DNA of 32,000 nt, from assembly GCA_964523265.1 (NCBI GenBank), contig CAZFXQ010000003.1:1-32000 (forward strand), in the 5' to 3' direction. The position numbers and the translations under genes were made by a program. The notes under the pieces are model-generated. The model searched no databases. It was given only the letters and a program-made list of their open reading frames with translations, and had not been told where the DNA came from. The first letter of the stretch is position 1, and each line of letters opens with the position of its first letter. Below are positions 4,642 through 31,753 of the stretch, one piece after another. This DNA is from an uncultured Muribaculaceae bacterium (GTDB lineage Bacteria > Bacillota_I > Bacilli_A > RF39 > UBA660).

Positions 4642-4672
4642 AAAGCAATTAAATAAATTATAATTGCTTTTT
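4641..4672. terminator. Bidirectional terminator between convergent LysR and HipA-like genes
   Basis: AAAGCAATTA (4642..4651) pairs with TAATTGCTTT (4661..4670). It is flanked by an A-run and a T-run. Confidence 0.65.
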
Positions 4673-5483
4673 ATATTATTAATTTTTTTTCTTTAATTAT
4701 ATCTTTACGCTCATTTATTAGTTCACCATAAATAAACTTTTCTCCACTATTTAAATAAATTCCTTTTTTTATTAAATTTTTATCTATCATACCAATATTT
4801 AAATTCATTATTCTTTTTAATAATTGCTGAAATGTTTTATCTTCTCTTATATAAGACAAAACACTTTCTTTATCAAGGTCAAACTGAAAATAATTATCAT
4901 TTTCATGGAATTTAGTAAAAAAAGACAATTCATAATCATATAATGGTAATAATTTTGCATTTTTATCATTAAAAGAAAACAAAAAATTATTTTCATGGCG
5001 ATCTGTTTGAAGTGTAATAAAATCACATATTATCATTTTCTTTAAAGCTATTATTAGCTTTTCTTTACTTTCTTTATTAAGTACTACATAATCTTTTTCA
5101 TTAAAGCTATATCTATCTAATGTTTTTAAATTTTCAATATCAGAAGAAAAGCGAACATTAAAATTGGTTATATATCCTATCTTTTGGTTTTTATTCGTAA
5201 ATAGTTTTGATAATAAGACAATGTTTTTTGTATCATATGTTGCAGGAATACTATCAACCGTCTGTACTTTTAAATACTTGGCTACTTCTTGGCAAATAAG
5301 TTCATTTATTAAATAGTCTTCAATATTAGCAAACGCTTCTCTTACATGATATATAATATTGTCTTTTTTTATAAAATATTGTAAATAGTTATTTTGACAA
5401 AAAACATTTTTATAATCCTCTTCTGTTAAAGAATAATCTTCGTACTTATTTAAAAGCATTAATTTATTTTGATCAATATACAT
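4671..5483 (-). CDS. Small HipA-C-like / PI3-4-kinase-fold putative protein kinase (hypothetical)
   Basis: 270-aa ORF. It has a catalytic-loop-like QTDRHENNF motif followed by LLPLYDYELSF, resembling the DxHxxN loop plus the downstream aspartate motif of HipA-C family kinases. Its ATG lies 2 nt after the uvrB stop (GGAAAATAAATATG). Confidence 0.5.
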   Translation of the reverse strand: MYIDQNKLMLLNKYEDYSLTEEDYKNVFCQNNYLQYFIKKDNIIYHVREAFANIEDYLINELICQEVAKYLKVQTVDSIPATYDTKNIVLLSKLFTNKNQKIGYITNFNVRFSSDIENLKTLDRYSFNEKDYVVLNKESKEKLIIALKKMIICDFITLQTDRHENNFLFSFNDKNAKLLPLYDYELSFFTKFHENDNYFQFDLDKESVLSYIREDKTFQQLLKRIMNLNIGMIDKNLIKKGIYLNSGEKFIYGELINERKDIIKEKKLII

Positions 5484-7533: not shown

Positions 7534-8613
7534 CTAACTATCTTTTTTTATTGTTTTTATCTTTTCTTTTTTTATTACTTTATCAATAATCCCATTTTCA
7601 ACTGTGTATATTGCCATTTTATATAATAATTTATTTATAATTCTAATTTTATTAGCCATCTCTGATGTACTCAATTGTTTATTTAATTTTATTTTATTAC
7701 TAACCAAAGAGATAAAATTTCTTTCTTCATAAGATAAAAAAGTAATAATTGAATAGTCAATAAATTCTTCATTGTAATTATCAATAATATTGTAAAAACT
7801 ATCTTTAGAATGATACTTTCTAACGTTAGTTGGTTTATTATATTCAACTTTATTATAATCATAGCTTTCACTTAAATCTTTTTTAAATTTATTTAAAATA
7901 CGGCTTATTTGAGCTTGTGTAATGTCATATTTTTCACCAATAATCCGCTGATTTGTCTCTCCGTTTATATAATCTAGTATTATGTTTTTATTCCTAATAC
8001 TATAGCTCTCTAATATCCCTTTTATTACAATTATTAATTCACATTCTTTTATATCATCTACAAAATCAGGTACTTTTATAAAATCTATACCATCATCATC
8101 TTTTATATAAATGCTTTCAACATTTATACCTGCATTCAACATATTTATTTCATCTTCAGCAATATTCAATAAAATTGATAATTCACTGATACTAATCTTT
8201 CTATTATACTTTTTTTCATATGTTTCACTTATATTACTAATAATGTTTAATAAATCTAGTTCTTTTCTTCCATAACTAATAACTCTGCATTTTGTTCTTA
8301 AATATGTTTTTATATATCCATCAATAATTGAGACTGCATATGATGAAAATTTAACATTTTTACTAATATCATAATTGTTAACTGCATATACAAGACCCAC
8401 TATTCCTTCTTGAAACACATCATCATACTTATCAACACTATTAATTCTACCAGCAAAATATTTATTAATCGCATGTTTAACAAGACTTATATTAGCTTTA
8501 ATTATTTTTTCCCTAGCTTCTTTTGTATTAATTTTAAATAGTTCTAATGTTTCTTTTTCATCCAATGGACTAAATTCATCAGATTTTATATTTTGTAATA
8601 CAAAACTGTTCAT
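7534..8613 (-). CDS. Sigma-70-family (group-3, SigF/SigG-like) sigma factor paralog 3 with a ~90-aa C-terminal extension
   Basis: Region 2 reads DVFQEGIVGLVYAVNNYD...FSSYAVSIIDGYIKTYLR. The region 4 HTH reads NQRIIGEKYDITQAQISRILNKFKKDL. The extension corresponds to nt 7588..7866. The preferred start is ATG 8613 (AGGTGGTG RBS), giving the MNSFVLQNIKSDEF N-terminus that aligns with the two paralogs. Confidence 0.8.
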   Translation of the reverse strand: MNSFVLQNIKSDEFSPLDEKETLELFKINTKEAREKIIKANISLVKHAINKYFAGRINSVDKYDDVFQEGIVGLVYAVNNYDISKNVKFSSYAVSIIDGYIKTYLRTKCRVISYGRKELDLLNIISNISETYEKKYNRKISISELSILLNIAEDEINMLNAGINVESIYIKDDDGIDFIKVPDFVDDIKECELIIVIKGILESYSIRNKNIILDYINGETNQRIIGEKYDITQAQISRILNKFKKDLSESYDYNKVEYNKPTNVRKYHSKDSFYNIIDNYNEEFIDYSIITFLSYEERNFISLVSNKIKLNKQLSTSEMANKIRIINKLLYKMAIYTVENGIIDKVIKKEKIKTIKKDS

Positions 8614-8680
8614 AATTATCACCACCTAAACAAAATTATTATGCTTATTATTATTTATCTTAGCAAGTATAATTAAATAT

Positions 8681-9739
8681 TCATTTGTTTTTTACTAATT
8701 CTTTTATTATAATTTTGTTGCTTTCTATTACTTTTGTTGCCAATCTTAATATTAATTTTTCTAATAATGGTTTTGCACGTGCACATAAGGTTCTACTAGA
8801 TTTTCTTTTGCCATATTTAGGATAGTAAGCTAATAAGATTTCTTTTTCTTTATCACTAAATATTTCATCTATTGTTTCATCTACTAAATTTCTATCATAA
8901 TTATTTGTAACATCATAAATTGTATCGTTTGTCTTAAACATTTTGCTTGAATCAACAAACTTTGGATTATAATTCAATTCTTCTTTTAACTTGTTTTTAA
9001 ATTTTATAATTGTGCGTGAAACATGTGCTTGACTCATATTGCATATTTTTGCTATCTTTGTTTGTTCATACTCATCAATATAATATAATTTTATTGCTTG
9101 TTTCTTATCATCATTAAATTCATTTAATACTTTTTCAATAATCATTTTAATTTCAACAGATAAAATTTCATCTTTTGTTTCACTAATCATAGCTTTCAAA
9201 GAAACTGGCTTTTCATTATTAATTACCATATTTTCTAAACTTATAGTATTTAGACCCAACAATTTTTTATTAATATCATCAACTGAAATATTAAGTAAAT
9301 TTGATATGGTGTCTTCACTTATTGGTAATCCTTTATTTTTATAATATATCTCTGATATATAATTAATACTATTTTGAAGGTTTATTGCTGATCTTGAAGG
9401 CCTAATAATCTTCTTTTTTTCTCTTGAAAAAATTCTTATTTTTCCTTCAATAATTGGTATTGCATATGTCGAAAACGAAGTTCCGTAATTAGAATCATAA
9501 TTATTTATTGCTTCAATAAGACCCAGTGCACCTTCTTGAAATGCATCTTCATAATCTTCTTCTTTAACTAACGTATTTAAATTAATTTTTGATAATACAT
9601 ACTTAATAAGTTTTAAATTAGCCTTAAATATTTTTTCTTTAGCTTCCTTCGTTCCTTCTAAAAATAGTATTTTTATCTCTTCATTTGTAATCTGATTAAA
9701 CTCTTCTGACTTTATATCTTTTAGTATAAATCTATCCAT
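8681..9739 (-). CDS. Sigma-70-family (group-3-like) sigma factor paralog 2 with a ~90-aa C-terminal extension
   Basis: Region 2 reads DAFQEGALGLIEAINNYD...FSTYAIPIIEGKIRIF. The region 4 HTH reads QTKIAKICNMSQAHVSRTIIKFKNKL. The extension (nt 8714..8980) aligns with the paralogs. The start lies 4 nt after the stop of the upstream giant sigma gene. Confidence 0.85.
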   Translation of the reverse strand: MDRFILKDIKSEEFNQITNEEIKILFLEGTKEAKEKIFKANLKLIKYVLSKINLNTLVKEEDYEDAFQEGALGLIEAINNYDSNYGTSFSTYAIPIIEGKIRIFSREKKKIIRPSRSAINLQNSINYISEIYYKNKGLPISEDTISNLLNISVDDINKKLLGLNTISLENMVINNEKPVSLKAMISETKDEILSVEIKMIIEKVLNEFNDDKKQAIKLYYIDEYEQTKIAKICNMSQAHVSRTIIKFKNKLKEELNYNPKFVDSSKMFKTNDTIYDVTNNYDRNLVDETIDEIFSDKEKEILLAYYPKYGKRKSSRTLCARAKPLLEKLILRLATKVIESNKIIIKELVKNK

Positions 9740-9743
9740 ATTA

Positions 9744-12700
9744 CTATCTATTAACGTTTCTTTTATTTATCATCAGTTTTTTAGAAAGCTCACCAGTACT
9801 ATTTAATATATTTGATGCAAATTTAGTTATCATATCTAATCCACTATTTAAATATTTTGTAATTATATTAGAATCAACTTTAAACATTTCTGATAATTCT
9901 TCAATCGTATACATCTTATCATCAACATATCCTAAAGCTAATAATAACAAAACTTGAGTTTTACTATCTGTCAAATTATTAATTAATAATCTAACACTAT
10001 CTTTATTTTGTTTAAAGACTTCATAATGAAAATCATTATAACTTTTATTTGCTTTAGTCTTTTTATCAAAATCATCTTTGTCTACATAATATAAATTATC
10101 TTTATTAATAATTTGTTCTTCACTTTCGTTTTCTTCTGTTATTGAATTATTTTGCTTTCTAATTTCATCAATACTCATTGGTTTACTGCATTTGTTTTTT
10201 AATTCAAAATCCGGATATGCCATCATTATTTTTTTAGTAAAAGGTAAAGTAAATATTGAAATATAATCTAAATCAATTTTTTCACCACTAGGATTCATAT
10301 ATCCTATGTTTGGCCATTTAATTTGATAAACATCATAAAGTATTCTTACATCAGTTTTTTCAATATTTGAAATTAATTTATCTAATTCTTCTATTGTAAT
10401 ATCTTCATTAAAAACTGAATGCATATCATCTAAATCTAGCTCTTGTTTATGTTTAATGAAATGATCATTAATTTCTTCGCGTGTTAATGACACCCATTTT
10501 TCAAATCTTGGTACCTGCAGATAATATTTATAAGCCAAATCTTTTTCACCTAATTCATGAAAAAATAAACCTATTCTTCGTATATTATAACTACTGTTAT
10601 GTTCAATATCTTGAGCTACCATAAAATCAAATTCTTTAATAGCTTCATCTTTTTTACCAAGTAAATAAAGAGCCTTCCCTTCCAATGACATTTTCCTTAA
10701 AATATTAGGTGTAATCTTATTCCCTTCAATATTTTTAAGTTCTTCTAAACATTCTAAATAATTACCACTGTCGAAAAAGATTAAGGCCTTAGTATAAAAA
10801 GCATCATAGTCTTTTTCATTTTTATCAATCGATTCATTTAAAAGACTAAATGCCATGTCATCCTTGCCAAGAAAGTGATAACACAAGGCTATTTTACTTT
10901 TATGATAATTTTTTTTATAATCAACTTTCCCACACTCAGAAAAAGTCTTAAGAGCTTCTTCATATCTTTCTTGAATAATGTAATTTTCACCTAATTCACA
11001 TAAAACATTATAATCTGAATTATATTTTAAAGTTTCTTTATAATACTTTTCAGCAAGCTGTAATTTACCACGCTTTTGATATATTGAAGCTATATTATAA
11101 TTAGCACAATATAATAAATAATTATCTTGCGTCATATTTAATAACTTTTTATATATTTCTAGTGATTCCTTAAGTTGAAATGGTGTTCCATTTTGTAATT
11201 CTGCTGCTTGTTTAAATAAATTATTAATGTATGAATTTAATGATTCATTTTTAATATCAGTTTTCTTTTCTTCAAAATTTTCTATTTCTTTTTCGTCCGT
11301 TATTTCATAACATACTATTTCATCATTTTCAATATTAGTAAAATCATATCTACCATTTTCATCTTTTTTAACGCAATTATAAAATTTCTTAATATTAGTA
11401 TCTCTTACTAATATTTTTTCATCAATAATATTATTATCTTTATCTATCTCAGTAATTCTATAAACATAACACTTTTTTGTAATTGAACCTTTTTCATATA
11501 TATTACCAAAGAAAACATCAGCATTTGATAACTTACATTTTGAAACAGTTTTTGATACAACTAAAAATCTACTATTATTTAAAATATATTTTGTATTTAA
11601 GATTTCTTTATTATTATCTTTTATTAAATCATAAATTTCACCTATATCATTAATACACTTTTCTTTTTTTATTTCTTTTTTAGTAATAGTTATTTTTTTA
11701 TTTTCTAATTGTTTATTAGCTTCTTCATTTTTCTCTTCACTAATTTGTTTTAAATATTTTTTTATTTCTGATTGGCACATTGATATATAATTTTTTGTTG
11801 TGTTTACTGTTATATTTAACTTTAATGCAATTTCTTCGATTGTTAATTTATTATAGTAGTAATCTTTAAATGCTATTATTTGTTTTTCTGATAAATTACT
11901 AATAATTAAATCTAAGGCACACTCATCTAAACTATCTAGCATTTCTTTAAAATTTATACTTTTCGTTTTTTTATTTACATATTTATTTTCTTTTTTTAAT
12001 TTTAATTTTTTTTCACCATTAAGTATACCTTTAATTTGCTTTTTTATATTATAATTAGTTGTATACATACTACTTGATTTTATACCTGTTGATGCTGCAA
12101 TTTCATCAATTGACTTTTTTTCTTTACCATTTAAACCATAATAACACTCTATAATTAATTTGTTTTTACAAGATAATTCATCAATAGCTTTTAAAACTTC
12201 TTCTTTAGTATAACCTTCAAATTCATTAAAAAAATTATCTTTCTTATCTTGGTTTATTTTTGTTCCCTTCTGTAATTTTAGTGTCTTCTTACCACTTAAA
12301 ATATCAATCACAAATTTTTTTGTATTAACTGCTGCCTGATAAACATTAGAATAATTTAAATTAAGTACTTCTGCTATTTCCTTTATAGAAATTTGACTTT
12401 TTCCATTTACACCATATAAGTATTCCATAATTTCTTTCTTTTTTTGGGGTAAAACATTAATAATACTTAACACACTTTCCTTACTATATCCTACAAAATC
12501 ATCTTCAATGTTGTAATTATTTTTTCTTTTTGTTTTATTTTCTCTTTCCATATTTTCACCATTTTCTATCACTTTTAATGCCATTTTCTCAACTAATTTT
12601 TCTATCAAAATATATGCTTTCCATTTTATATTTTCACTTTGTATAGTTTTTTTTAATTCTTTTATTGATTTTGGATAAAAACAGAATAATATTTCCTTTT

Positions 12701-13601
12701 CATCATCTGTAAATATTTCATCTATCGTTTCATCTATCATTTTTTTATCATAAAAACTTATTTTATCGTATATTGTTTGTTTAACTCTTTTTATTTTGCT
12801 ATTTTCTTCTACATACATTGGATTATATTCCAACTCTTTTAATAATTCTCGTTTAAACCCTCTTAATATTCTACTTACTTGTGCCTGGCTTAAAGATAAC
12901 TTTTCTGCTAATTCTGTTTGCGTTATAAAACCTGTGTAATACTGTATTATCGCTTCTTTTCGTTCGTTTGGATATTTATTTAATACCTTTTCAACAACTA
13001 ACTTTGTTTCTACTAGTGACATATCATCATAATCATAACTAATTAAATTTTCTAATCCACATTTATTATCAGCACTCAAACTAGATGAGTTCATATTAAC
13101 ATCAAAACTTAAAATATCATTACTAGAAATTGCTTGCGCAATTTCACTTTCTGATGTATTAAGTAGCGTTGATAACATTTTTGTGCTAATTTGTTTCCCA
13201 TACTTTTTTTCATATGCATCAATTAATAATGCAACTCTATATTTTAAATATGTTGCTTTTCTTGATGGTTTTATTAAATAAGATTTATCTCTTAAATATC
13301 TTTGTATTTCACCTTTAATCATTGGAACAGCATAAGTTGAAAATTCCACATTATAATCTAAATTAAACTCTTTTATTGCCTTTAGAAGACCAACTAATGC
13401 TTCTTGAAACATATCTTCATAATTTTGATTAGTAATTTTTTGTGAAAATTCTCCTAATACATACTTAACAAGTGGAATATTACTTTTAAATATTTTTTCT
13501 TTTGCCTCTTTTGTTCCCTCTAAAAACAATTTTTTTATTTCTTCGCTTGAAATTGTTTGAAATTCTTCTGATTTAATATTTTGTAAGCTAAATGTCTTCA
13601 T
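9744..13601 (-). CDS. 1285-aa sigma-70-family fusion protein: sigma core, shared extension, 3 sigma-4-like HTH repeats, unknown domain, TPR array, terminal HTH
   Basis: Uninterrupted 3858-nt ORF in a very AT-rich genome. aa 1-255 form a complete sigma core (EALVGLLKAIKEFNLDYNVEFSTYAVPMIKGEIQRYLRD; HTH TQTELAEKLSLSQAQVSRILRGFKREL). An AGGTGA RBS precedes the ATG. Domain coordinates are given in the findings. Confidence 0.9.
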   Translation of the reverse strand: MKTFSLQNIKSEEFQTISSEEIKKLFLEGTKEAKEKIFKSNIPLVKYVLGEFSQKITNQNYEDMFQEALVGLLKAIKEFNLDYNVEFSTYAVPMIKGEIQRYLRDKSYLIKPSRKATYLKYRVALLIDAYEKKYGKQISTKMLSTLLNTSESEIAQAISSNDILSFDVNMNSSSLSADNKCGLENLISYDYDDMSLVETKLVVEKVLNKYPNERKEAIIQYYTGFITQTELAEKLSLSQAQVSRILRGFKRELLKELEYNPMYVEENSKIKRVKQTIYDKISFYDKKMIDETIDEIFTDDEKEILFCFYPKSIKELKKTIQSENIKWKAYILIEKLVEKMALKVIENGENMERENKTKRKNNYNIEDDFVGYSKESVLSIINVLPQKKKEIMEYLYGVNGKSQISIKEIAEVLNLNYSNVYQAAVNTKKFVIDILSGKKTLKLQKGTKINQDKKDNFFNEFEGYTKEEVLKAIDELSCKNKLIIECYYGLNGKEKKSIDEIAASTGIKSSSMYTTNYNIKKQIKGILNGEKKLKLKKENKYVNKKTKSINFKEMLDSLDECALDLIISNLSEKQIIAFKDYYYNKLTIEEIALKLNITVNTTKNYISMCQSEIKKYLKQISEEKNEEANKQLENKKITITKKEIKKEKCINDIGEIYDLIKDNNKEILNTKYILNNSRFLVVSKTVSKCKLSNADVFFGNIYEKGSITKKCYVYRITEIDKDNNIIDEKILVRDTNIKKFYNCVKKDENGRYDFTNIENDEIVCYEITDEKEIENFEEKKTDIKNESLNSYINNLFKQAAELQNGTPFQLKESLEIYKKLLNMTQDNYLLYCANYNIASIYQKRGKLQLAEKYYKETLKYNSDYNVLCELGENYIIQERYEEALKTFSECGKVDYKKNYHKSKIALCYHFLGKDDMAFSLLNESIDKNEKDYDAFYTKALIFFDSGNYLECLEELKNIEGNKITPNILRKMSLEGKALYLLGKKDEAIKEFDFMVAQDIEHNSSYNIRRIGLFFHELGEKDLAYKYYLQVPRFEKWVSLTREEINDHFIKHKQELDLDDMHSVFNEDITIEELDKLISNIEKTDVRILYDVYQIKWPNIGYMNPSGEKIDLDYISIFTLPFTKKIMMAYPDFELKNKCSKPMSIDEIRKQNNSITEENESEEQIINKDNLYYVDKDDFDKKTKANKSYNDFHYEVFKQNKDSVRLLINNLTDSKTQVLLLLALGYVDDKMYTIEELSEMFKVDSNIITKYLNSGLDMITKFASNILNSTGELSKKLMINKRNVNR

Positions 13602-13637
13602 GGTATCACCTATTTACTTATTTATATAAGCAAAGAT

Positions 13638-13665
13638 ATTATACTTATAATTATTCATATGTCAA
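13638..13665 (-). promoter_or_regulatory. Near-consensus housekeeping-type promoter for the sigma cluster
   Basis: The minus strand reads TTGACA (13665..13660), a 16-nt spacer, then TATAAT (13643..13638). This is about 35 nt upstream of the giant sigma ATG and immediately downstream of a terminator. Confidence 0.55.
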
Positions 13666-13681
13666 AAATATTTAATTAATT

Positions 13682-13709
13682 AAAAAACCTTTTCTATACT
13701 TAGAAAAGG
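13682..13709 (-). terminator. Rho-independent terminator after the FAD-dependent oxidoreductase gene
   Basis: CCTTTTCT (13688..13695) pairs with AGAAAAGG (13702..13709). On the minus strand it is followed by T6 (13682..13687). Confidence 0.7.
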
Positions 13710-13720
13710 GCTTTTTAATA

Positions 13721-15109
13721 CTATTTTTTTGATATATCATCTGCTGCTATAATACCTGTTGCTGCTGCTGTTACAATATTTCCTGCCTTACCACTACCAT
13801 CACCAATAAAATAAATATCATAATCTTCTAACTTAAATTTGTTATTCGTTGTTATTTCATTTGAAAAGAATTTTATTTCAGGTCCATAAAGAAGTGTTTC
13901 ATCATTATTTACTCCTGGTATTATTTTATCTAATTTTTCTAAACCTTCTAATATATTTGTAATTATTCTATGTGGTAATACTAATGCTAAATCACCTGCT
14001 ACACAATCCTTTAATGTCGGTGATATGAATCCTTTATTTATTCTATGCATCTTACTTCTTCTTCCACTTCTTAGATCTTTAAGTGTTTGAATAATTGGTT
14101 TTGAATCACCCAAAACATTTGCTATTCTTGCTATTGACTCACCATACAACCTAGTGTTCGTAACTGGTTCTGTTAAGTTTACTTTGCTTATAAAAGCAAA
14201 ATTGGAGTTAGCTGACTTCTTTTCTTTTAAAGCATGTCCATTTACACATATATATCCATAATAATTTTCTTTTGTTACATACCCTCCTGGATTTGTACAA
14301 AAGGTTCTTATCTCATCTTGATAAGTATCAGTTTTAATAAATATTGTTGGATCATAAATTACGTTTGTTAAATCCTCAAGAATTTCTTTTCTTACTTCTA
14401 CTCTTACACCGATTTCAATGCTTTGTGATGTATATTTAATATTATACTTATCTGCTAATTCCTGGACCCATTTAGCGCCTGTTCTACCAGGTGCAATAAT
14501 AACATTTTTAGCATTTACATTATATTCTTTATTTCCTTTTTTATAAATTACTTGATGATTAATTTTTGATTTTGAACAAATATCTATAACATTTGTTTTT
14601 TCTTTTAATTCACAACCTGCTTCTTTTAAATATTCCGTGAAATTTTTAATATAAATTGGTAATTTATCACTACCTAAGTGTTTTTGTTTAATAAGCATTA
14701 ATCTTGCTCCAGTTAAAGCTACCTGTTTTGATATTTCCTGCGCTTTTTTATTATCACTAGGATATATTTTACTATCCATACCAAACTTATTAAATATTTT
14801 TTCTGTTTCATCTATTACTTCGTATGCTTCTTCCTCGCTCATATACTTAAACAAATCACTTTTTCCTAATTTTGGAATAAAATTAAGTTTCCCATCAGAA
14901 AAAGTACCTGCCCCTCCATAACCTGATAATATATTACAAGGATTACAATTAGCACAAGCTGTTTTTTTAACATTCATTGGACAAATCCTTTTTTCAGCAA
15001 AATTACCTTGATCCAATAATAATATTTTTAATTTTTTATTATTTTCTAATAATCTATATGCACTAAATAATCCGGCAGGCCCTGCACCTATTATAACTAC
15101 ATCATACAT
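13721..15109 (-). CDS. FAD-dependent oxidoreductase (uncharacterised COG2509-like family)
   Basis: N-terminal Rossmann dinucleotide motif YDVVIIGAGPAGLFSAY, a second GD motif near the C-terminus (YFIGDGSGKAGNIVTAAATG), 462 aa. Confidence 0.75.
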   Translation of the reverse strand: MYDVVIIGAGPAGLFSAYRLLENNKKLKILLLDQGNFAEKRICPMNVKKTACANCNPCNILSGYGGAGTFSDGKLNFIPKLGKSDLFKYMSEEEAYEVIDETEKIFNKFGMDSKIYPSDNKKAQEISKQVALTGARLMLIKQKHLGSDKLPIYIKNFTEYLKEAGCELKEKTNVIDICSKSKINHQVIYKKGNKEYNVNAKNVIIAPGRTGAKWVQELADKYNIKYTSQSIEIGVRVEVRKEILEDLTNVIYDPTIFIKTDTYQDEIRTFCTNPGGYVTKENYYGYICVNGHALKEKKSANSNFAFISKVNLTEPVTNTRLYGESIARIANVLGDSKPIIQTLKDLRSGRRSKMHRINKGFISPTLKDCVAGDLALVLPHRIITNILEGLEKLDKIIPGVNNDETLLYGPEIKFFSNEITTNNKFKLEDYDIYFIGDGSGKAGNIVTAAATGIIAADDISKK

Positions 15110-18902: not shown

Positions 18903-19983
18903 TCACCCCTTTAAATTAGCTTCTATAAACTCATCAATATTACCATCTAAAATTTTATTAACATTTGATGACTCAAAATTTGTCCTATGATCTTTTATTA
19001 ATGAGTAAGGATGCATAACATAACTCCTAATTTGTGAACCAAATTCAACTTTATTATGGTCACTTTTTATATTTTTAATATTATCTTCTTGTTCTTTCAA
19101 TCTTATTTGATATAACTTACTTTTTAATACTTCAAGAGCAATTTCTTTATTTTTTATTTGACTTCTTTCGTTTTGACAAGTAACTACTATACCAGTTGGG
19201 ATATGTGTTATACGTACAGCACTATCTGTTGTATTAACACCTTGTCCACCTGCTCCACTACTTCTATAAACATCTATCTTAAGTTCATTTTCTTTTATAT
19301 CAATATTTATATTATTATCTATTTCAGGTATTACATCAACTGCTGCAAAAGAAGTATGTCTTTTATGATTTGAATCAAATGGTGATAATCTAACTAACCT
19401 ATGAACACCCTTTTCATTTTTTAAATATCCATATGCATATTTCCCTTTTACAATATATGATACACTCTTTATCCCAACTTCCTCACCTGGTTGTTCATCT
19501 ATTTTTTCATATTTATATCCCTTTTTATCAAAATATTTTAAATACATTCTATTAAGCATCATAGCCCAATCACAACTTTCCGTTCCACCTGCTCCGGCAT
19601 GAAGTTCAAATATAACATTATTATTATCATACTCACCAGATAAATATGTATCTATTTCTTTCTCCTTTAAAGAATTTAAAACTTCTTCATATAATTTTTG
19701 AAATTCAATTTTAATTTCTTCATCTATGTCATCATTAAATTCTACATATTGATTAAGAACATCTATATCTTTTTTTAATTTATGCATAGAATTACATATA
19801 TCATCTATATCATTTAATTTCTTTGTAATTTCTTCTGCATTTTTCACATCATTCCATATATCTTTTTTTTCAATCTCTTTTTTTAAATTTTCTCTTTCTT
19901 TTTCTAGCTTTTCTAACTCAAAGTCCCCTCCATATTTGGTTATATAATTTATTTAAATTTTCTATATCTTTATTGCTAAACAT
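18903..19983 (-). CDS. prfB: Peptide chain release factor 2, expressed via programmed +1 frameshift
   Basis: ORF0 is ATG 19983 .. CTT 19923-19921 (MFSNKDIENLNKLYNQIWRGL) followed by an in-frame TGA (19920..19918). The +1 frame continues as ELEKLEKERENLKKEIEKKDIWNDVKNAEEI and joins the track ORF. The SPF tripeptide (RLSPFDS) and GGQ motif (SGAGGQGVN) are present. Confidence 0.95.
19918..19929 (-). promoter_or_regulatory. RF2 autoregulatory +1 frameshift site (SD-like AGGGGA followed by CTT TGA)
   Basis: The minus strand reads TGG AGG GGA CTT TGA G, the classical prfB recoding cassette. Confidence 0.9.
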
Positions 19984-22778: not shown

Positions 22779-23483
22779 ATGATAAGTTTTATAATATGTG
22801 AAGATAACAAAGGAGCAACAGAGATATATAAAAGAATAATAAATAAAGCGTTGATAAAATATGACATAGAATATAAAATTTATACATTTGAAAAATATAA
22901 TGAGAAATTAAAAAAAATAATAGAAGAGCCACAAGAATTAAAAATATATATAATGGATCTTGCAATGCCAGTAAAAAGTGGTATAGAAATAACAAAGCAA
23001 ATAAGAAAACAAGATTGGGATAGTCAAGTAATAATACTAACAGCACACGAAGAATTAGAATTAAGAATGTTAAAACAAAAACTATTGATAATAGATTTTA
23101 TATCAAAATTTGAAGATTATGAGAAGAGATTAACAGAGACAATAAAATTAATAATAAAACAAAGAAAAAGTATGAATACAATAATAGTGAAATCAGAAAA
23201 GATAATTCACAAAATAAAACTAGAAGACATATTGTACATATATAAAGAAAATGGAAGTGCAAACACAAATATAGTAACCAAAACAAAAGAATATAAAGTA
23301 AGAGAAAGTTTAATTAAATTAGAACAAAAATTAGATAATAGATTCTGTAAAACACACAGAAGTTGTATAGTAAACAAAGATAAAATAAAAAAAATAAATT
23401 TTAAAGAAAAAGAAATAAGCATGGAAGGGAATAAAAAAGTAGATTATTTATCACGAAATTACAAGAAGAATCTGAAGGTGTAA
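22779..23483 (+). CDS. LytTR-family response regulator (AgrA-like)
   Basis: Receiver domain with the phospho-acceptor context IYIMDLAMP. The C-terminal LytTR DNA-binding domain reads LEDILYIYKENGSANTNIVTKTKEYKVRESLIKLEQKL...FCKTHRSCIVN. Confidence 0.88.
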   Translation: MISFIICEDNKGATEIYKRIINKALIKYDIEYKIYTFEKYNEKLKKIIEEPQELKIYIMDLAMPVKSGIEITKQIRKQDWDSQVIILTAHEELELRMLKQKLLIIDFISKFEDYEKRLTETIKLIIKQRKSMNTIIVKSEKIIHKIKLEDILYIYKENGSANTNIVTKTKEYKVRESLIKLEQKLDNRFCKTHRSCIVNKDKIKKINFKEKEISMEGNKKVDYLSRNYKKNLKV

Positions 23484-23485
23484 CA

Positions 23486-24802
23486 ATGGAAATAGAAAAA
23501 ATATTATATAGTATAATAGGAGGAATATTTCAAGGATTAGGGACAAGTATAATAATAAAACGCCAAATACCAGAAATAAGTACCAAAAGATTTATAATAA
23601 TAAACATAATATTAATGATATATGGATCAATATCAATTTTATATATAGATAATGAATTTAGATTTTTAAGTTTTTTGATGGTTGTAACAATAACAATATA
23701 TTTTATAGTAAAAATAAGAGATAAAAGAGCAATATTATATGCATTTATAACAGAAATAATAAATTCAATATCAGAAATAGTAATATCAATAGTATTGCTA
23801 TTAATAATAGGAATAGATTCAAAATTAATGATAACAGATTATAAAATCAATTTAATAGCAAATATAAGTATGTCAATGTTTGGGATCATACTAATAATGT
23901 TTAAAAAAACGAAAGAGATAGCAAAGAAGATAATAGGATTATTTGAAAAAAATAAAAAATTAATAAATTATTTTTATGTGTTTATAGTAGTATTGTATTT
24001 ATTGGTATTAAAAAATGGATTTGAGTTTTTAGTAAAAACAAATTACTATATAAATGTGTTATTTATACTAGGATTATTTGTTATTTTAGTAATGATGATA
24101 AGTAATGAGAGAAAAAAAGAAAGTTTAAAAGAGCAATATAAACAAATGTTAAGTTATGTAACCAAATATGAAAAAATAATAACAGAACAAGGCAAAGCAA
24201 ATCATGAATATAAAAATCAATTAATGGTAATAAGAGGATATGCTCAAATGAATAATATACCGAAGTTAACTGCATATTTAGATTCAATAATAAAGGATTA
24301 TAAGAAAACACAAAGTAGTTACTTAATAAAAGAATTAAATAAGTTTCCAGAAGGAGGAATAAAGGGATTATTATATTATAAGTTATCAATGATGGAAGAT
24401 GAAAAGATAAAATATATAATAGATGTTGAAAGTGGTATAAAAACAAAGTTAAAAGGATTAAAAGTAGAAGAATATAAAAACATAACAAAAATATTAGGCG
24501 TATTATTAGATAATGCAATAGAATCAAGTAAGAAATCAAAAAAGAAGAATGTAATAATAAACGTAGAAAAAAGTAAAAACGAAGTAATATTTAGTGTTTC
24601 AAACACGTACAAAGGAAAGATAAAAATAGAAAAGATAGGTACAGGATACACAAGTAAAGGAACAAAGCACGGATACGGACTTAAGTTAGTAAAAGACATA
24701 ATAGAAAACAATAAAGGATATGGTATGAATAATTATTTAGAAGATGATTATTATGTTTGTAAATTAAAAGTTAATATTAATAGGAAAACAAAAAGAAGTT
24801 AA
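23486..24802 (+). CDS. AgrC-like (HPK10-type) membrane histidine kinase
   Basis: About 200 aa polytopic N-terminus (6 or more TM helices), H-box NHEYKNQLMVI, N-box LLDNAIESS, G-box HGYGLKLV. It starts 3 nt after the regulator gene's stop codon. Confidence 0.85.
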   Translation: MEIEKILYSIIGGIFQGLGTSIIIKRQIPEISTKRFIIINIILMIYGSISILYIDNEFRFLSFLMVVTITIYFIVKIRDKRAILYAFITEIINSISEIVISIVLLLIIGIDSKLMITDYKINLIANISMSMFGIILIMFKKTKEIAKKIIGLFEKNKKLINYFYVFIVVLYLLVLKNGFEFLVKTNYYINVLFILGLFVILVMMISNERKKESLKEQYKQMLSYVTKYEKIITEQGKANHEYKNQLMVIRGYAQMNNIPKLTAYLDSIIKDYKKTQSSYLIKELNKFPEGGIKGLLYYKLSMMEDEKIKYIIDVESGIKTKLKGLKVEEYKNITKILGVLLDNAIESSKKSKKKNVIINVEKSKNEVIFSVSNTYKGKIKIEKIGTGYTSKGTKHGYGLKLVKDIIENNKGYGMNNYLEDDYYVCKLKVNINRKTKRS

Positions 24803-24821
24803 TCTATAATGATTAACTTCT
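24794..24821. terminator. Bidirectional hairpin between the convergent kinase and agrD-like genes
   Basis: Perfect 11-bp stem AGAAGTTAATC/GATTAACTTCT with loop TATAAT. It overlaps the kinase stop and is flanked by an A-run and a T-run. Confidence 0.7.
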
Positions 24822-24825
24822 CTTT

Positions 24826-24951
24826 TTATCTTTCTATCATTGATTTAGGCATTTGTGGTTCATCAATGAAAACAAATGCACATCCTGCTGTAGCAGCACT
24901 TGCTACTAAAGCCCCTAATGCTGAAACTACTGAAATAACTATAGCTTTCAT
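24826..24951 (-). CDS. agrD: AgrD-like autoinducing-peptide precursor (41 aa), not in the ORF track
   Basis: Manual translation gives MKAIVISVVSALGALVASAATAGCAFVFIDEPQMPKSMIER. A perfect AAGGAGG RBS lies 7 nt upstream, and the gene sits 36 nt downstream of agrB. The sequence has an amphipathic leader, a single Cys plus 4 hydrophobic residues, and an acidic proline-rich tail. Confidence 0.8.
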   Translation of the reverse strand: MKAIVISVVSALGALVASAATAGCAFVFIDEPQMPKSMIER

Positions 24952-24987
24952 GTTTTTACCTCCTTATAATTAATTTATCTAAACACT

Positions 24988-25596
24988 TTAATTTGTGTTT
25001 AAACCATATGTTTTGTAATTATTATAAGGCATTTTAAAAGCCTTATATGTTAATGGCAATATTAATATACATTCTATTACAACACCTATTGTTAAACAAT
25101 TAATTATTAAGTTGTTTTTGATTATTAATGAAAAAACTAAATATATTAGTAAAACCATTATTGATAGAAGTTTATATTTTAATCTACGCTGTTTTTTTAT
25201 TAATGGTCGTTTTTCTGTATCTGCAGGTGCATAAATTAAAAATAATACTAGCATTGATATGTAAATAATAGTTATAATCAACTTTGGTATTATTAGAATG
25301 CTACATAAGTAAGCTCCAAGAATAAAAATCAATAAAGAAAAGGTAAGACAGTGCCAACTTTTTGATGCATGCATTCCAAATGCAAATAAACGAATAAAAT
25401 TATAAGTTAATAATAGTAAAATTAATTCCTTGAAGATATTAAATATAATTGCGACTAAAAATATTACAATAGCTTTAGTAATAGTTAAATATAAACCTTC
25501 AATACCATACATTATTTCATCTATTTTCTCTTTGCTATAATTCTTGTTTTTATTTGTAATTTCTTTTTTTATATATTTTAAAAAACGTTTTTTCAT
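24988..25596 (-). CDS. agrB: AgrB-family accessory gene regulator protein (AIP-processing membrane peptidase)
   Basis: 202 aa, polytopic. The conserved AgrB-type segment RLFAFGMHASKSWHC contains the catalytic-type His and Cys. It lies directly upstream of the agrD-like ORF. Confidence 0.85.
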   Translation of the reverse strand: MKKRFLKYIKKEITNKNKNYSKEKIDEIMYGIEGLYLTITKAIVIFLVAIIFNIFKELILLLLTYNFIRLFAFGMHASKSWHCLTFSLLIFILGAYLCSILIIPKLIITIIYISMLVLFLIYAPADTEKRPLIKKQRRLKYKLLSIMVLLIYLVFSLIIKNNLIINCLTIGVVIECILILPLTYKAFKMPYNNYKTYGLNTN

Positions 25597-29368: not shown

Positions 29369-29818
29369 ATGAACGCAGAATTAAAGAAAGTAAATTTTGA
29401 TAATACTGATTTTATAAAATTATGTCTGTTTTTAGAGCAAGAGCACATTGATATAGTAAAAGAGCAAAGAAGTCCTAAAGGTAATTGCTTAAATAATTCA
29501 GATAAATTTACCACTGTGTTTATTCAATATATTGATAATAAACCTGTTGGATGTTTAGCAATGAAGGACTGCATAAATAAAACTATTGAAGTTGGAAGAT
29601 TATATGTACTGCCTGAATATAGGCAAAATAAAATAGCAACAAAATTATTTCAAAAGGTTGAAGAATATGCTAAGAAATTAGGTGCAAATAGAATAATTTT
29701 AGATACTTATAAGAGATTTACTTCAGCGGTGGCATTATATAAAAAATTAGGTTTTTATGAAATAGAAAATTATTTAGATTATTCTCCGTATTCAATATGT
29801 ATGGAAAAGAAAATATAA
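29369..29818 (+). CDS. GNAT-family N-acetyltransferase
   Basis: Motif A region LYVLPEYRQNKIATKLFQKVEEYAKKLGANRIILDT. The preferred start is ATG 29369, behind a GGAGG RBS. The track ORF starts at a TTG at 29306, inside the repeat. Confidence 0.8.
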   Translation: MNAELKKVNFDNTDFIKLCLFLEQEHIDIVKEQRSPKGNCLNNSDKFTTVFIQYIDNKPVGCLAMKDCINKTIEVGRLYVLPEYRQNKIATKLFQKVEEYAKKLGANRIILDTYKRFTSAVALYKKLGFYEIENYLDYSPYSICMEKKI

Positions 29819-29865
29819 TTAAAATCATTATAAAGTTTAAAAAAGCAAAGGAGGGATTTTGGAAA

Positions 29866-30756
29866 ATGAAAAATGAATTAGTGACAACAGAATTAAATGT
29901 AATTAATAATAAGATAGGCATTATTAGAGTTGGTAATGTAAATTATATATCAATAACTGATTTGGCACGATATAAAGATAAAGATAGAACTGATTATATA
30001 ATTCAAAACTGGATGAGAAATACAAATAGTATATTATTCTTGGGCACTTGGGAATCTATTCATAATGATAATTTTAATTCCATCGAATTCGATGGGTTTA
30101 AAAATGAGTCCGGTACAAATGCTTTTGTTATGACTCCTAAAAAATGGATCAAAACTACAAATGCTATTGGAATAATATCTAGACAAGGTAGATATAATAG
30201 TGGCACATTTGCACATCCTGATATAGCATTTGAATTTGCTAGTTGGCTTTCACCTGAATTCAAATTATATTTAATAAAAGAGTTCGAAAGATTAAAAACT
30301 AATGAAGCATATCAATATAAAATTGAATGGAGTGCAACTCGTCTTTTATCAAAAGTCAATTATGTTGTTCATACCGATGCTATAAAAGAATGTATAGTGC
30401 CTAATTTAACAGAAAAGCAAAAACAGCATATCTATTCTGATGAAGCAGATATTATTAATGTAGCCTTATTTGGTATGACAGCAAAAGAGTGGAGAAAACA
30501 AAATCCTGAATTAGCTAAAAATGGTAATATTAGAGACTATACAGATTTATTACATTTAGTAATCTTAAATAATCTCCAAAACACAAGTGCTGAATTAATA
30601 GAAGATGGTCTATCACAAAGAGATAGATTAATAAAATTAAATGAATCAGCAAAACGGCAAATGAAATCTTTGCAACATAGTAAAAGTATGAAAGATTTAG
30701 AATTGTTACAAAATGAGATTAAAGAGAATAGTTTAATTGCAATAGATAGTAAATGA
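29866..30756 (+). CDS. KilA-N domain-containing protein (phage/mobile-element-associated DNA-binding protein)
   Basis: The KilA-N-type core reads NYISITDLARYKD...QNWMRN...GTFAHPDIAFEFASWLSPEFKLYLIKEF. The preferred start is ATG 29866, with an AAGGAGGG RBS. Confidence 0.75.
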   Translation: MKNELVTTELNVINNKIGIIRVGNVNYISITDLARYKDKDRTDYIIQNWMRNTNSILFLGTWESIHNDNFNSIEFDGFKNESGTNAFVMTPKKWIKTTNAIGIISRQGRYNSGTFAHPDIAFEFASWLSPEFKLYLIKEFERLKTNEAYQYKIEWSATRLLSKVNYVVHTDAIKECIVPNLTEKQKQHIYSDEADIINVALFGMTAKEWRKQNPELAKNGNIRDYTDLLHLVILNNLQNTSAELIEDGLSQRDRLIKLNESAKRQMKSLQHSKSMKDLELLQNEIKENSLIAIDSK

Positions 30757-31015: not shown

Positions 31016-31058
31016 GCCTGCAAGCCCATATAAATAAAGGGATTGTGAGCTTTTTCTT

Positions 31059-31171: not shown

Positions 31172-31747
31172 ATGATAGATTTTTACATACACCAAATTGG
31201 AAATATTCAAAATGAAAAGACTTATGAAAGATTGATAAGTATATTAAAAAGTCAAACTATAAGTTCTAGAGATTTTTTAGAGAAGCAAGGAATAAAATTT
31301 GAATACGATAATGCATCATTCAAATTGGATATACCAGAAAATAAAAAGTGGATGTACTATGAAGAAGATATTCATAAAGATAGAGTATCGTTATCTGATC
31401 CACAAAATAGATTTATAAAAAAAGCCATTGAAAAGAAAGACCATCAAATGTTTACTTGCTTTGATTACGATTATATTGCTTTTGCTGTTTCTAGAGATGT
31501 TCCATTAGTACCACAAGAAGAAACTCATGGACTAGCTTTAGGCGAAGTACAAGTTAAAGATAAAGTGGATTCCCAATACATTGTTGGTTTAATATTACCA
31601 ATTACTGAAGAGCAAATGCAAGATGAAAAAAATATGCAAATAGTTGAAGCGTTTGCAAGTCTATGTGAAAAAAATGGATTTCCATTAGATATTTATAATT
31701 ACGAAGGTGTTTTATTAGATAAAAAGAAACAAATCAAATCAATATAA
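31172..31747 (+). CDS. Hypothetical 191-aa soluble protein (no recognisable motifs)
   Basis: Clean ORF with a GGAGA RBS, flanked by the R2a/R2b direct repeats. I recognise no TM segments or catalytic motifs. Confidence 0.6.
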   Translation: MIDFYIHQIGNIQNEKTYERLISILKSQTISSRDFLEKQGIKFEYDNASFKLDIPENKKWMYYEEDIHKDRVSLSDPQNRFIKKAIEKKDHQMFTCFDYDYIAFAVSRDVPLVPQEETHGLALGEVQVKDKVDSQYIVGLILPITEEQMQDEKNMQIVEAFASLCEKNGFPLDIYNYEGVLLDKKKQIKSI

Positions 31748-31753
31748 TGTTAT

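Follow-up and report, generated by a model that had tools for sequence, protein, structure and literature searches.

Does the 3,858-nt open reading frame at positions 9744..13601 (minus strand) encode one genuine protein, and if so, what kind of sigma factor continues for about 1030 residues past its own sigma core? The gene lies in a 32,000-nt stretch of contig CAZFXQ010000003.1 (assembly GCA_964523265.1, uncultured Muribaculaceae bacterium), referred to here as the window. The initial annotation described a giant 1285-aa protein in which a complete group-3-like sigma-70 core is followed by an extension shared with two paralogs, three sigma-4-like helix-turn-helix (HTH) modules, a beta-rich segment, about six TPR-like repeats, a further segment of no known identity and a terminal HTH, and suggested that it may be a one-component sigma factor belonging to no described family.

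In order to establish whether the reading frame is intact, which the initial annotation had made a condition of its claim, the frame was examined in the window and in related assemblies. The frame begins with ATG and contains no internal stop; in a window of 25% GC, stop codons make up roughly 9% of random triplets, so 1285 open codons cannot arise by chance. The gene recurs at full length in at least four strain variants (homologs designated P0001, P0015, P0016 and P0017), which are all 1285 aa and differ by 1-4 substitutions. An independent assembly (ENA ERZ28018966) has the same gene order, YitT-ftsE-ftsX-pcsB-FAD-giant-par2, where par2 and par3 are the two short paralogs that follow the giant gene. 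Beyond these, about 10 diverged lineages keep the architecture, with invariant residues in every domain. Although the data come entirely from metagenome assemblies, an assembly chimera or a decaying fusion without function is refuted as far as sequence data can show, and is considered very improbable. The observation made in the initial annotation is confirmed, and its coordinates hold within a few residues.

Table 1. Features of the giant sigma factor locus (window coordinates, with residues of the encoded protein and the supporting analysis)
Position	Strand	Residues	Feature	Support
9744..13601	-	1-1285	Whole gene for the giant sigma factor, stop codon included	Strain variants and independent assembly
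13638..13665	-		Sigma-A-type promoter match upstream of the gene, TTGACA-16-TATAAT; an AGGTGA ribosome-binding site lies 4 nt before the ATG	12 of 12 consensus match
13688..13709	-		Terminator-like hairpin plus T-run ending the upstream FAD-dependent oxidoreductase gene; makes the sigma cluster its own transcription unit	
12837..13601	-	1-255	Complete SigB/F/G-like sigma core: sigma-2 (aa 38-107), sigma-3, sigma-4 (aa ~196-255)	Pfam and NCBIfam profiles, SigF structure alignment
12558..12836	-	256-348	Extension shared with par2 and par3 and with homologs P0002, P0021, P0022 and P0025; its first half weakly resembles the first half of a sigma-4 repeat	Paralog alignment; hhalign over 38 columns, E 1e-3, probability 20%
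12282..12518	-	362-440	Sigma-4-derived repeat R1	Repeat HMM, 3e-14 (aa 362-422)
12018..12254	-	450-528	Sigma-4-derived repeat R2	Repeat HMM, 5e-21
11742..11984	-	540-620	Sigma-4-derived repeat R3, divergent	Pfam Sigma70_r4, best stretch aa 567-603; repeat HMM, 2e-4 (aa 584-620)
11277..11654	-	650-775	Orphan domain, predicted as one helix plus a six-strand antiparallel sheet; C689 and C764 invariant and C711 nearly invariant in a 14-sequence alignment (14-15 of 15 in a further conservation count)	AF2 pLDDT 80-89; no Pfam or PDB match
10521..11240	-	788-1027	About 7 TPR-like repeats (14 helices)	Pfam TPR_1, TPR_2 and TPR_12; AF2 pLDDT about 90; Foldseek matches to TPR proteins down to 3.5e-9
10209..10511	-	1031-1131	Orphan acidic alpha/beta domain X (predicted fold), net charge -9; H1051, H1061, D1090, Y1092, G1100, T1118, P1120, F1121 and K1123 invariant	AF2 pLDDT 86, pTM 0.78; no Pfam, PDB or Foldseek relative
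10020..10208	-	1132-1194	Acidic linker, variable in length and low in complexity	Family alignment; pLDDT below 50
9807..10019	-	1195-1265	Conserved C-terminal sigma-4/LuxR-like HTH (LLLxLG[YF]V motif); the same module ends a TPR-less 649-aa sigma next to P0002	Repeat HMM, family alignment and profile comparison
8681..9739	-		par2: 352-aa paralog (sigma core plus extension) starting 4 nt after the stop of the giant gene; probably co-transcribed and translationally coupled	Profiles and paralog alignment
7534..8625	-		par3: second paralog (sigma core plus extension); the real start is probably the ATG at 8613, behind an AGGTGGTGA ribosome-binding site	Profiles and paralog alignment

We next asked whether the N-terminus is a sigma factor, failure to detect regions 2 and 4 by profile having been set in advance as grounds for rejecting the proposal. 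Both regions were detected. Pfam Sigma70_r2 matched aa 38-107 (6e-13; 48.8 bits against a cut-off of 24), Sigma70_r4 also gave hits, and TIGR02937 scored 118 bits against a cut-off of 42.9, while several HTH models matched aa 214-252, and the SigB/F/G and SigF alignments run through aa 247-253, including TQTELAEKLSLSQAQVSRIL. The SigB/F/G model (TIGR02980) aligned at positions 2-222 of 227 to aa 31-253 (1e-43), and the SigF structure (PDB 1L0O_C) aligned contiguously over aa 19-247 (1e-23), so that region 3 is included. The region 2 sequence FSTYAVPMIKGEIQRYLRD compares with FSTYAVPMIIGEIQRFLRD in SigF, region 2.3/2.4 being nearly identical, and identity to SigF/SigG genes is 29-36%. However, the core scores 149.5 bits, below the curated TIGR02980 cut-off of 234.35 bits, and is also far below the cut-offs of the SigF, SigG and SigB equivalog models; it is therefore called SigF-like rather than a member of SigF, SigG or SigB, a divergent offshoot whose binding to RNA polymerase is assumed, as neither core binding nor promoter-specific initiation was assayed. 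The core differs from group-4 sigma factors in having region 3, and Pfam Sigma70_ECF gave only E 0.017, below its cut-off. An FSTYA[VI]PMI-type motif is kept in most of the full-length homologs that were read (L for F in P0021 and in the ORF of a further locus, L005; FSSYATSMI in P0022).

The residues downstream of the core were then examined by profile searches, AF2 modelling and Foldseek, as had been suggested for the two segments of no known identity. Both paralogs align with the giant protein over aa 1-348, at 43% and 35% identity. The spare HTH modules derive from sigma-4 itself, aligning in register with the genuine sigma-4 of the protein. There are about 7 TPRs, rather than the about six first counted, and these match only generic TPR folds (CTPR, OGT, MamA, APC) with no ligand-binding relative. 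The segment containing WPNIGYM is predicted to be a compact domain, X. The beta-rich segment and X are well-folded orphan domains in the AF2 models. The C-terminal HTH is only weakly sigma-4-like, giving E 0.054 with the repeat HMM, whereas the family profile of this region matches the sigma-4 of the first sigma core of P0003 at 4e-6. There is no transmembrane segment, indicating a soluble protein.

The protein is not unique. It belongs to a small, rare family of about 15 clusters at 50% identity, found in uncultured low-GC spore-forming bacteria. The architecture is kept at 30-35% identity in P0002-P0005, P0021-P0023, P0025 and the L005 ORF, although the number of repeats varies from 2 to 9 between homologs. 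The conserved minimal unit is [sigma-4 repeat]-beta-TPR-X, which also exists without any sigma core as a complete stand-alone gene (P0027, P0031), beside sporulation genes, showing that HTH plus putative sensor is an autonomous unit. Relatives with a sigma-like region plus arrays of the same about 77-aa sigma-4-derived repeat but without the beta-TPR-X module (P0006, P0007 and the 649-aa protein next to P0002) come from the same kind of low-GC genomes, the P0007 locus having ylbD/ylbE/ylbF neighbours; these are also undescribed, so they do not explain the function. No curated family in Pfam, NCBIfam or PADLOC, and no paper found, covers the architecture, a prior description having been named as a point that would count against the claim of novelty.

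The behaviour of the repeats bears on a first alternative, that the protein is a multivalent DNA reader in which the tandem sigma-4-derived domains and the C-terminal HTH each bind a -35-like element, anchoring RNA polymerase, or the protein itself as a regulator or nucleoid organiser, on arrays of repeated sites, with the TPR and X domains serving oligomerisation or partner recruitment rather than autoinhibition. In addition to the in-register alignment and the Pfam Sigma70_r4 match, copy number expands to 8-9 in P0004 and P0003 and reaches 11-14 in the TPR-less P0006 and P0007, an expansion typical of avidity-type binding; some repeats are basic (+5 and +6 in P0004), and the minimal conserved unit always includes one HTH. 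However, most repeats are near-neutral (about +1) and less basic than real sigma-4, so it is uncertain whether they bind DNA or protein. No matching tandem DNA repeat arrays were seen in the window, although the regulon need not be local, and the model does not explain the conserved Cys/His residues of the beta and X domains. This alternative is possible but considered unlikely.

A second alternative is that the giant protein acts in trans on its neighbours, its spare sigma-4 domains, TPR and X domain sequestering or scaffolding par2 and par3, or competing with them for core RNA polymerase, with its own sigma core secondary. The three paralogs lie in one apparent operon, the 93-aa extension is shared by exactly these proteins, P0002 is likewise preceded by the 649-aa sigma whose C-terminal HTH is nearly identical to that of P0002, and P0003 fuses two sigma cores in one chain. 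Against this, most homolog loci (P0004, P0021, P0022, L005) show no adjacent sigma paralog, and the sigma core of the giant protein is as well conserved as the rest of it. This reading is regarded as improbable.

Genomic context was used to look for known modes of control. No SpoIIAB/RsbW-like anti-sigma kinase, STAS antagonist, other partner-switching gene of the spoIIAA/spoIIAB or rsbV/rsbW type, other anti-sigma gene or conserved neighbour was found in the window or in any homolog locus (about 9 loci), the rest of the genome not having been examined; contexts differ between loci (uvrB, glmS, PFOR, ATP_bind_3). A role in an anti-phage or other conflict system, with the TPR sensing an invader and X acting as an effector or immunity-like module, was also considered; this would resemble MzaA, the large sigma-70-family protein of the MZA system (NF041931 / PDLC02203), which contains a sigma-70-type core plus extra domains and was the only "big sigma" model to give a hit. 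The match is weak (NCBIfam 52 bits against a cut-off of 800; PADLOC 29 bits, on the sigma-2 region only) and covers only the generic sigma part; in MzaA the extra part is N-terminal, and no mzaB-E partner genes are present. The best Foldseek match of X is a chain of a CdiA-CT/CdiI toxin-immunity complex (5E3E_B, E 8e-3, TM 0.41), which is not significant by TM-score. The sigma core is 36% identical to phage SigF-like sigmas, but the family is absent from 50,697 phage records, 72,556 plasmid records and IMG/VR, and no defence genes or mobile elements flank any locus, the contexts being housekeeping. This possibility is highly unlikely.

The closest precedents for fused regulation are the ECF sigma factors with C-terminal extensions, TPR in ECF42 and SnoaL-like in ECF41/56/294/295, which typically lack anti-sigma factors (PMC7826278), and the comparison with ECF41 and ECF42 drawn in the initial annotation is apt. 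The giant protein shares with these a fused C-terminal domain and the absence of a co-encoded anti-sigma factor, and with ECF42 the use of TPRs, an analogy of principle only; those are group-4 proteins (sigma-2 and sigma-4 only) with a single extension domain of about 100-200 aa, whereas here a group-3 core is followed by seven or more domains, including duplicated sigma-4 modules and two orphan folds. The minimal unit also resembles the RRNPP-type one-component regulators of Firmicutes (PlcR, NprR, Rap, RstA) in placing one HTH before a TPR array in a soluble cytoplasmic protein of a low-GC Gram-positive, and would work like an HTH+TPR sensor-regulator; the TPR protein RapF is reported to bind the DNA-binding domain of the response regulator ComA by DNA mimicry (PMC3246441). 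However, the HTH is sigma-4-type rather than XRE-type, a beta domain lies between HTH and TPR and an X domain follows, no RRNPP structure appeared among the top Foldseek hits, and no cognate peptide gene was identified.

The explanation we favour, with no more than even confidence, is that this is a cytoplasmic alternative sigma factor of the SigB/SigF/SigG (group 3) lineage that carries its own regulatory and sensory apparatus in cis. In this view the N-terminal 255 residues would bind core RNA polymerase and recognise promoters like any SigF-type sigma, and, because the gene would be transcribed from a consensus housekeeping promoter, control would probably be post-translational; the promoter match is, however, a consensus scan in AT-rich DNA, and its function was not examined. 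The C-terminal unit, [sigma-4-like repeat(s)]-[Cys-bearing beta domain]-[TPR]-[acidic X domain]-[sigma-4-like HTH], would replace the separately encoded anti-sigma or partner-switching proteins that control canonical SigF and SigB. We propose that the TPR and X domain hold one of the basic sigma-4-type HTH domains, either the real sigma-4 or a repeat that competes with it, and that a ligand, peptide, redox or metal signal sensed by the beta, TPR or X domains would change that contact and switch sigma activity, with par2 and par3 likely partners or targets of the same control. The charge of X, set against +4 for sigma-4 and +3 for the C-terminal HTH, is complementary, and the invariant residues and confident AF2 folds of both orphan domains indicate that the appendage is functional, not junk. 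The sequence analysis itself demonstrates the sigma core, the domain architecture and its conservation, the absence of neighbouring anti-sigma genes and the promoter match, while RNA polymerase binding, the intramolecular switch and the nature of the signal are inferred. The interpretation in the initial annotation is accordingly supported only in part: the complete group-3 core, the domain order and the lack of a described family hold, but its suggestion that the TPR and spare sigma-4 copies act as intramolecular decoys or an anti-sigma-like module is still inference, as there are no experimental data, the alignments are shallow and intramolecular contacts were not modelled, and a repeat number varying from 2 to 9 fits a simple one-to-one decoy model poorly. 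Fusion of a sigma factor to a regulatory domain is already known, and what differs here is the lineage of the core and the number and kind of the appended domains.

More tentatively, the family may represent a previously unrecognised class of one-component group-3 sigma factors, in which duplicated sigma-4 domains, a TPR array and two new sensor folds, the Cys-bearing beta domain and the acidic His/Asp-bearing X domain, would form a built-in switch, the X/TPR module mimicking DNA or the RNA polymerase flap to capture a sigma-4 domain until a cytoplasmic signal (redox, metal or peptide) releases it. This would extend the ECF-only paradigm of fused sigma regulation to the sporulation and stress sigma lineage, and would also define two new domain families.

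The giant gene is an uninterrupted frame of 1285 codons with an ATG start, in a window of about 25% GC where roughly one random triplet in eleven is a stop, so an open frame of this length cannot arise by chance, and the feature described in the initial annotation is real. A chimeric assembly or a frameshifted, split ORF had been singled out beforehand as what would overturn it, and neither was seen. The protein collection holds four full-length 1285-aa versions (P0001, P0015, P0016 and P0017) that differ from each other by 1-4 substitutions, and an independent ENA assembly (ERZ28018966, locus L015) shows the same gene order of YitT, ftsE, ftsX, pcsB-like, FAD-dependent oxidoreductase, giant gene and par2, leaving an assembly artefact highly improbable.

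The window is ordinary chromosome of a low-GC Firmicute, carrying pfkB, a LysR regulator, uvrB, ftsEX, an M23/PcsB-like hydrolase, a YitT-family gene, prfB, alr, an agr-type locus, hpf, secA and a KilA-N gene. The giant gene follows a terminator-like hairpin that ends the upstream oxidoreductase gene, a 12-of-12 match to TTGACA-16-TATAAT, and an AGGTGA ribosome-binding site. Two paralogous sigma genes, par2 and par3, follow on the same strand, with par2 starting 4 nt after the stop of the giant gene. The mechanical par3 ORF starts at a GTG at 8625, but an in-frame ATG at 8613, preceded by AGGTGGTGA, is the more likely start, and a weaker sigma-A-like promoter match (TTGCTA-17-CATAAT) in the 55-nt gap before it indicates that par3 may also have its own promoter. 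There is no room for another gene between these genes, and nothing in the window resembles SpoIIAB/RsbW or a STAS protein. A trans-acting role for the giant protein, as a scaffold or sequestering partner of the two short paralogs, was considered and is regarded as unlikely. Rfam and tRNA scans found nothing. A search for tandem DNA repeats, as possible binding arrays for the sigma-4 repeats of the protein, found only AT-rich low-complexity rows; the rival reading of the protein as a multivalent DNA reader that uses its sigma-4 array is likewise held to be unlikely.

Elsewhere in the window, the classic RF2 programmed +1 frameshift site (GGAGGGGACTTTGA, a Shine-Dalgarno-like element followed by CTT TGA) lies upstream of the 314-aa RF2 ORF, and prfB here is therefore frameshift-regulated as in most bacteria. 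An agr-type quorum-sensing locus lies 9-12 kb from the sigma cluster, with no link between them shown; it comprises agrB, a 41-aa AgrD-like ORF (MKAIVISVVSALGALVASAATAGCAFVFIDEPQMPKSMIER) with a Cys-containing AIP core and a DEP tail, and a divergent LytTR response regulator and GHKL histidine kinase. Downstream of the KilA-N gene is an array of 9-bp AAATACTAT-like units, and a duplicated ~50-nt element ending TTTAGATACCTTTT flanks an unannotated 191-aa ORF, an arrangement that looks like iterons or operators of a small mobile or prophage-derived module; KilA-N genes also sit near the stand-alone TPR-X genes in loci L010 and L011. A gene for an FAD-dependent protein (PF21688 C-terminal domain) lies within 0-9 kb of the giant or multi-sigma-4 genes in three different lineages (the window and loci L002 and L006), which probably reflects residual synteny among related genomes rather than a functional link. 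Three ORFs of 191-283 aa have no NCBIfam match, and one of them has only a weak partial Pfam hit to the 2-oxoacid_dh catalytic domain.

Positions of the giant sigma gene, its protein domains and the other features observed in the window and in related loci
Feature	Sequence	Position	Strand	Detail
Giant gene	window	9744..13601	-	1285 codons
Sigma core	giant protein	aa 1-255
Extension	giant protein	aa 256-348
Repeat R1	giant protein	aa 362-422		repeat HMM, E 3e-14
Repeat R2	giant protein	aa 450-528		repeat HMM, E 5e-21
Repeat R3 (divergent)	giant protein	aa 584-620		repeat HMM, E 2e-4; best Pfam Sigma70_r4 stretch at aa 567-603
Beta domain	giant protein	aa ~650-775		AF2 pLDDT 80-89
TPR array	giant protein	aa 788-1027		14 helices, about 7 TPRs; AF2 pLDDT about 90
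X domain, stretch modelled	giant protein	aa 1023-1135		AF2 pLDDT 86, pTM 0.78
C-terminal HTH	giant protein	aa 1195-1265		motif LLLxLG[YF]V
Terminator-like hairpin	window	13709..13688		ends the upstream oxidoreductase gene
TTGACA-16-TATAAT match	window	13665..13638		12 of 12
par2	window	8681..9739	-	sigma paralog
par3	window	7534..8625	-	sigma paralog; probable ATG start at 8613
Weaker sigma-A-like match before par3	window	8666..8638		TTGCTA-17-CATAAT
FAD-dependent protein gene	window	13721-15109		PF21688 C-terminal domain
FAD-dependent protein gene	L002	1-1065		PF21688 C-terminal domain
FAD-dependent protein gene	L006	10710-12110		PF21688 C-terminal domain
prfB	window	18903..~20000
RF2 frameshift site	window	19918-19932	-	within prfB
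agr-type locus	window	22779-25596
agrB	window	24988..25596	-
AgrD-like ORF	window	24826..24951	-	41 aa
LytTR response regulator	window	22779..23483		divergent
GHKL histidine kinase	window	23486..24802
KilA-N gene	window	29797..30756
9-bp unit array and duplicated ~50-nt element	window	30846-30956, 31058-31118 and 31753-31802
Unannotated ORF	window	31172..31747		191 aa
ORF without NCBIfam match	window	4671-5483	-
ORF without NCBIfam match	window	21197-22048	-
ORF without NCBIfam match	window	22078-22653	-
649-aa SigE/K-like sigma gene and 1275-aa giant gene	L001 (P0002 locus)	8017-9966 and 10001-13828

The N-terminus was examined against profile libraries; a failure to detect sigma-70 regions 2 and 4 there would have refuted the assignment. 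Pfam found Sigma70_r2 at aa 38-107 and region-4-type HTH hits at aa 214-252, and the NCBIfam SigB/F/G model aligned positions 2-222 of 227 to aa 31-253 (E 1e-43). The score of 149.5 bits is below the curated cut-off of 234.35, and all SigF, SigG and SigB equivalog models are also below threshold. The closest solved structure is Geobacillus SigF (1L0O_C), with E 1e-23 and a contiguous alignment over aa 19-247, in which region 2 reads FSTYAVPMIKGEIQRYLRD against FSTYAVPMIIGEIQRFLRD in SigF, and region 4.2 reads TQTELAEKLSLSQAQVSRIL against TQSEVASRLGISQVQMSRL. A tblastn search against plasmids and phages matched only aa 8-260, at 29-36% identity, the targets being sigF and sigG genes and Bacillus-phage SigF-like sigmas. 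The initial annotation, which had placed region 2 very close to the SigF/SigG/SigB-type consensus, was correct in that the core is a complete group-3, SigF-like sigma, although a divergent one. MzaA is matched only through this generic sigma core, and the possibility that the protein is a component of a defence system is considered very unlikely.

The extension that follows the core is shared with par2 (43% identity over aa 1-348) and par3 (35%), and with homologs P0002, P0021, P0022 and P0025. Its first half weakly resembles the first half of a sigma-4 repeat (hhalign, 38 columns, E 1e-3, probability 20%), which is treated only as a hint. The repeats, of about 77 aa in homolog P0004, align in register with that protein's own genuine sigma-4, and an HMM built from them found three copies in the giant protein, the third divergent. 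Strong copies numbered 2 in P0002, 3 in the giant protein of this window, 4 in P0005, 4 in the L005 ORF, 8 in P0004, 9 in P0003, and 11-14 in P0006 and P0007, which have no TPR. A profile search of protein databases with the repeat alignment returned nothing, not even the family's own members, as did the same search with the X-domain alignment, and both are uninformative, for reasons that look technical.

AF2 modelling of aa 649-1285 with a 5-sequence alignment gave a confident domain of one helix plus six strands (the beta domain), a confident array of TPR helices, an unresolved stretch, and a moderately confident C-terminal helical domain. Foldseek on this model was swamped by generic TPR proteins (designed CTPR, OGT, MamA, PilF and APC subunits) and says nothing about the beta domain, which was not searched by fold on its own; no Pfam or PDB-sequence relative of the beta domain was found, and a weak cystatin hit (E 0.35) is noted only as a fold hint. 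With a 17-sequence alignment, drawing on homologs from an exhaustive HMM search of 1.84 billion representative proteins, the unresolved stretch folded confidently as a helical N-terminal part followed by an antiparallel sheet, here called the X domain. No relative of X could be found by a Pfam scan of all members, by a profile search against PDB sequences, or by Foldseek against BFVD, and the best Foldseek hit in PDB, a CdiA-CT/CdiI complex chain (5E3E_B, E 8e-3, TM 0.41), is not convincing and was rejected as evidence of homology. Readings of the X motifs as PD-(D/E)xK, 2H-phosphoesterase or DUF4258-like were considered and dropped because the residue spacing does not fit or no profile supports them.

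Across the family alignments, the invariant or near-invariant residues are C689, C711 and C764 in the beta domain, C890 and H900 in the TPR array, and H1047, H1051, H1061, D1090, Y1092, Q1093, G1100, T1118, P1120, F1121, K1123 and P1130 in the X domain. X is strongly acidic (net -9, pI 4.6), whereas the true sigma-4 is +4, the C-terminal HTH is +3 and the repeats are about +1, and the protein has no transmembrane segment. The C-terminal HTH is sigma-4-like only weakly, with an E of 0.054 to the repeat HMM, while the family profile of this region matches the sigma-4 of a SigE/K-like core in P0003 at 4e-6.

A word-indexed search of 5.8 billion proteins found only four full-architecture homologs at about 32% identity (P0002-P0005), plus two repeat-only relatives. 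The exhaustive HMM search added P0021, P0022, P0023 and P0025 with the full architecture, P0020 with two consecutive TPR-X units in 1107 aa, P0024 and P0026, which start at a repeat, P0027 and P0031, and several fragments. Scans for the C-terminal module gave one locus in GTDB species representatives, a MAG with a 1363-aa homolog, one more in JGI metagenomes, and none in IMG/VR. The family is rare, although the patterns used were narrow and these counts are lower bounds; in total there are about 15 clusters at 50% identity, all very AT-rich and all from metagenomes or MAGs. Based on gene content only, this and related loci (agr, ftsEX/pcsB, gerE, gerM-like, spoIIIAH-like, ylbD, yabP) point to an endospore-forming Firmicute.

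Variants within the family shed light on the design. P0027 and P0031 are complete stand-alone genes encoding one sigma-4-like repeat followed by beta, TPR and X, with no sigma core and no C-terminal HTH, and they sit beside SpoIIIAH-like, gerE and Germane/GerM-like genes in both loci, with yabP also in the P0031 locus. The gene upstream of P0002 encodes a 649-aa SigE/K-like sigma with three repeats but no TPR, and it shares with the 1275-aa giant of the P0002 locus an almost identical ~110-aa C-terminal tail (linker plus HTH), which implies recent duplication or gene conversion of that module between neighbouring sigma genes. The modules also duplicate as blocks, as in P0020 and in P0003 (2067 aa), where a second sigma core is fused in front, giving a SigE/K-like and then a SigF-like core in one chain with 9 repeats. 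The repeat-only relative P0007 lies next to ylbD/ylbE/ylbF. Every protein that has the beta-TPR-X unit and a preserved N-terminus has a sigma-4-type repeat directly N-terminal to it. Neighbouring genes are otherwise not conserved, with uvrB, glmS, PFOR and ATP_bind_3 appearing in different loci, and no anti-sigma-like gene is nearby in any locus.

The sequence analysis thus establishes a conserved, soluble, multi-domain protein with an intact SigF-like sigma at its N-terminus and an appendage built from sigma-4 duplicates, a TPR array and two well-folded orphan domains with invariant Cys, His, Asp and Lys residues, the modules being reshuffled between relatives. That it is a working alternative sigma factor whose activity is gated in cis by its appendage is an inference, held with moderate confidence, and rests on the consensus housekeeping promoter in front of the gene, the lack of the partner-switching genes that control canonical SigF and SigB, and the precedent that ECF sigmas with fused TPR or SnoaL extensions typically lack anti-sigma factors (PMC7826278). 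The interpretation in the initial annotation is partly supported; its proposal of sigma activity combined with a built-in sensor or anti-sigma-like module, in which the TPR and spare sigma-4 copies act as intramolecular decoys or oligomerisation surfaces, remains inference, the mechanism is entirely inferred and intramolecular contacts were not modelled. The charge pattern suggests that X and the TPR dock onto a sigma-4-type HTH, with acidic X against basic sigma-4 and C-terminal HTH, resembling the way in which the TPR protein RapF blocks the ComA DNA-binding domain by DNA mimicry (PMC3246441), and the conserved cysteines and histidines hint at a metal or redox input; neither suggestion was put to a test.

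In this view the protein would work like an ECF42-type fused sigma, and partly like an RRNPP HTH+TPR regulator, but it is a member of neither, as the core has region 3 and aligns with group 3, the HTHs are sigma-4-type and no RRNPP fold is recovered. It also fails the curated cut-off for the SigB/F/G subfamily. Prior description of this architecture as a curated family of known function would likewise, as stated at the outset, have counted against the proposal, and no Pfam, NCBIfam or PADLOC model and no paper in the library searched describes it. It is classed here as a sigma factor with a fused regulatory extension in a lineage where this was not known, with an unusual tandem sigma-4 array and two new domains.

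Group-3 sigma factors (SigF, SigG, SigB) are textbook examples of control by separate anti-sigma and anti-anti-sigma proteins, and fused, self-contained regulation has so far been documented essentially only for ECF (group 4) sigmas. A conserved family with a SigF-like core joined to spare sigma-4 domains, a TPR array and two orphan domains suggests an alternative way to gate such a sigma. Natural tandem sigma-4 arrays of 2-14 copies are useful for asking what sigma-4 can do beyond -35 recognition, and the beta and X domains, which fold confidently in the predicted models, deserve definition as two new domain families. If the protein is a single-chain signal-to-transcription device, it could serve as a minimal part in synthetic biology. 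As the stand-alone form sits beside gerE, gerM-like and spoIIIAH-like genes, the family may point to unexplored developmental regulation, possibly linked to sporulation, in uncultured low-GC spore formers.
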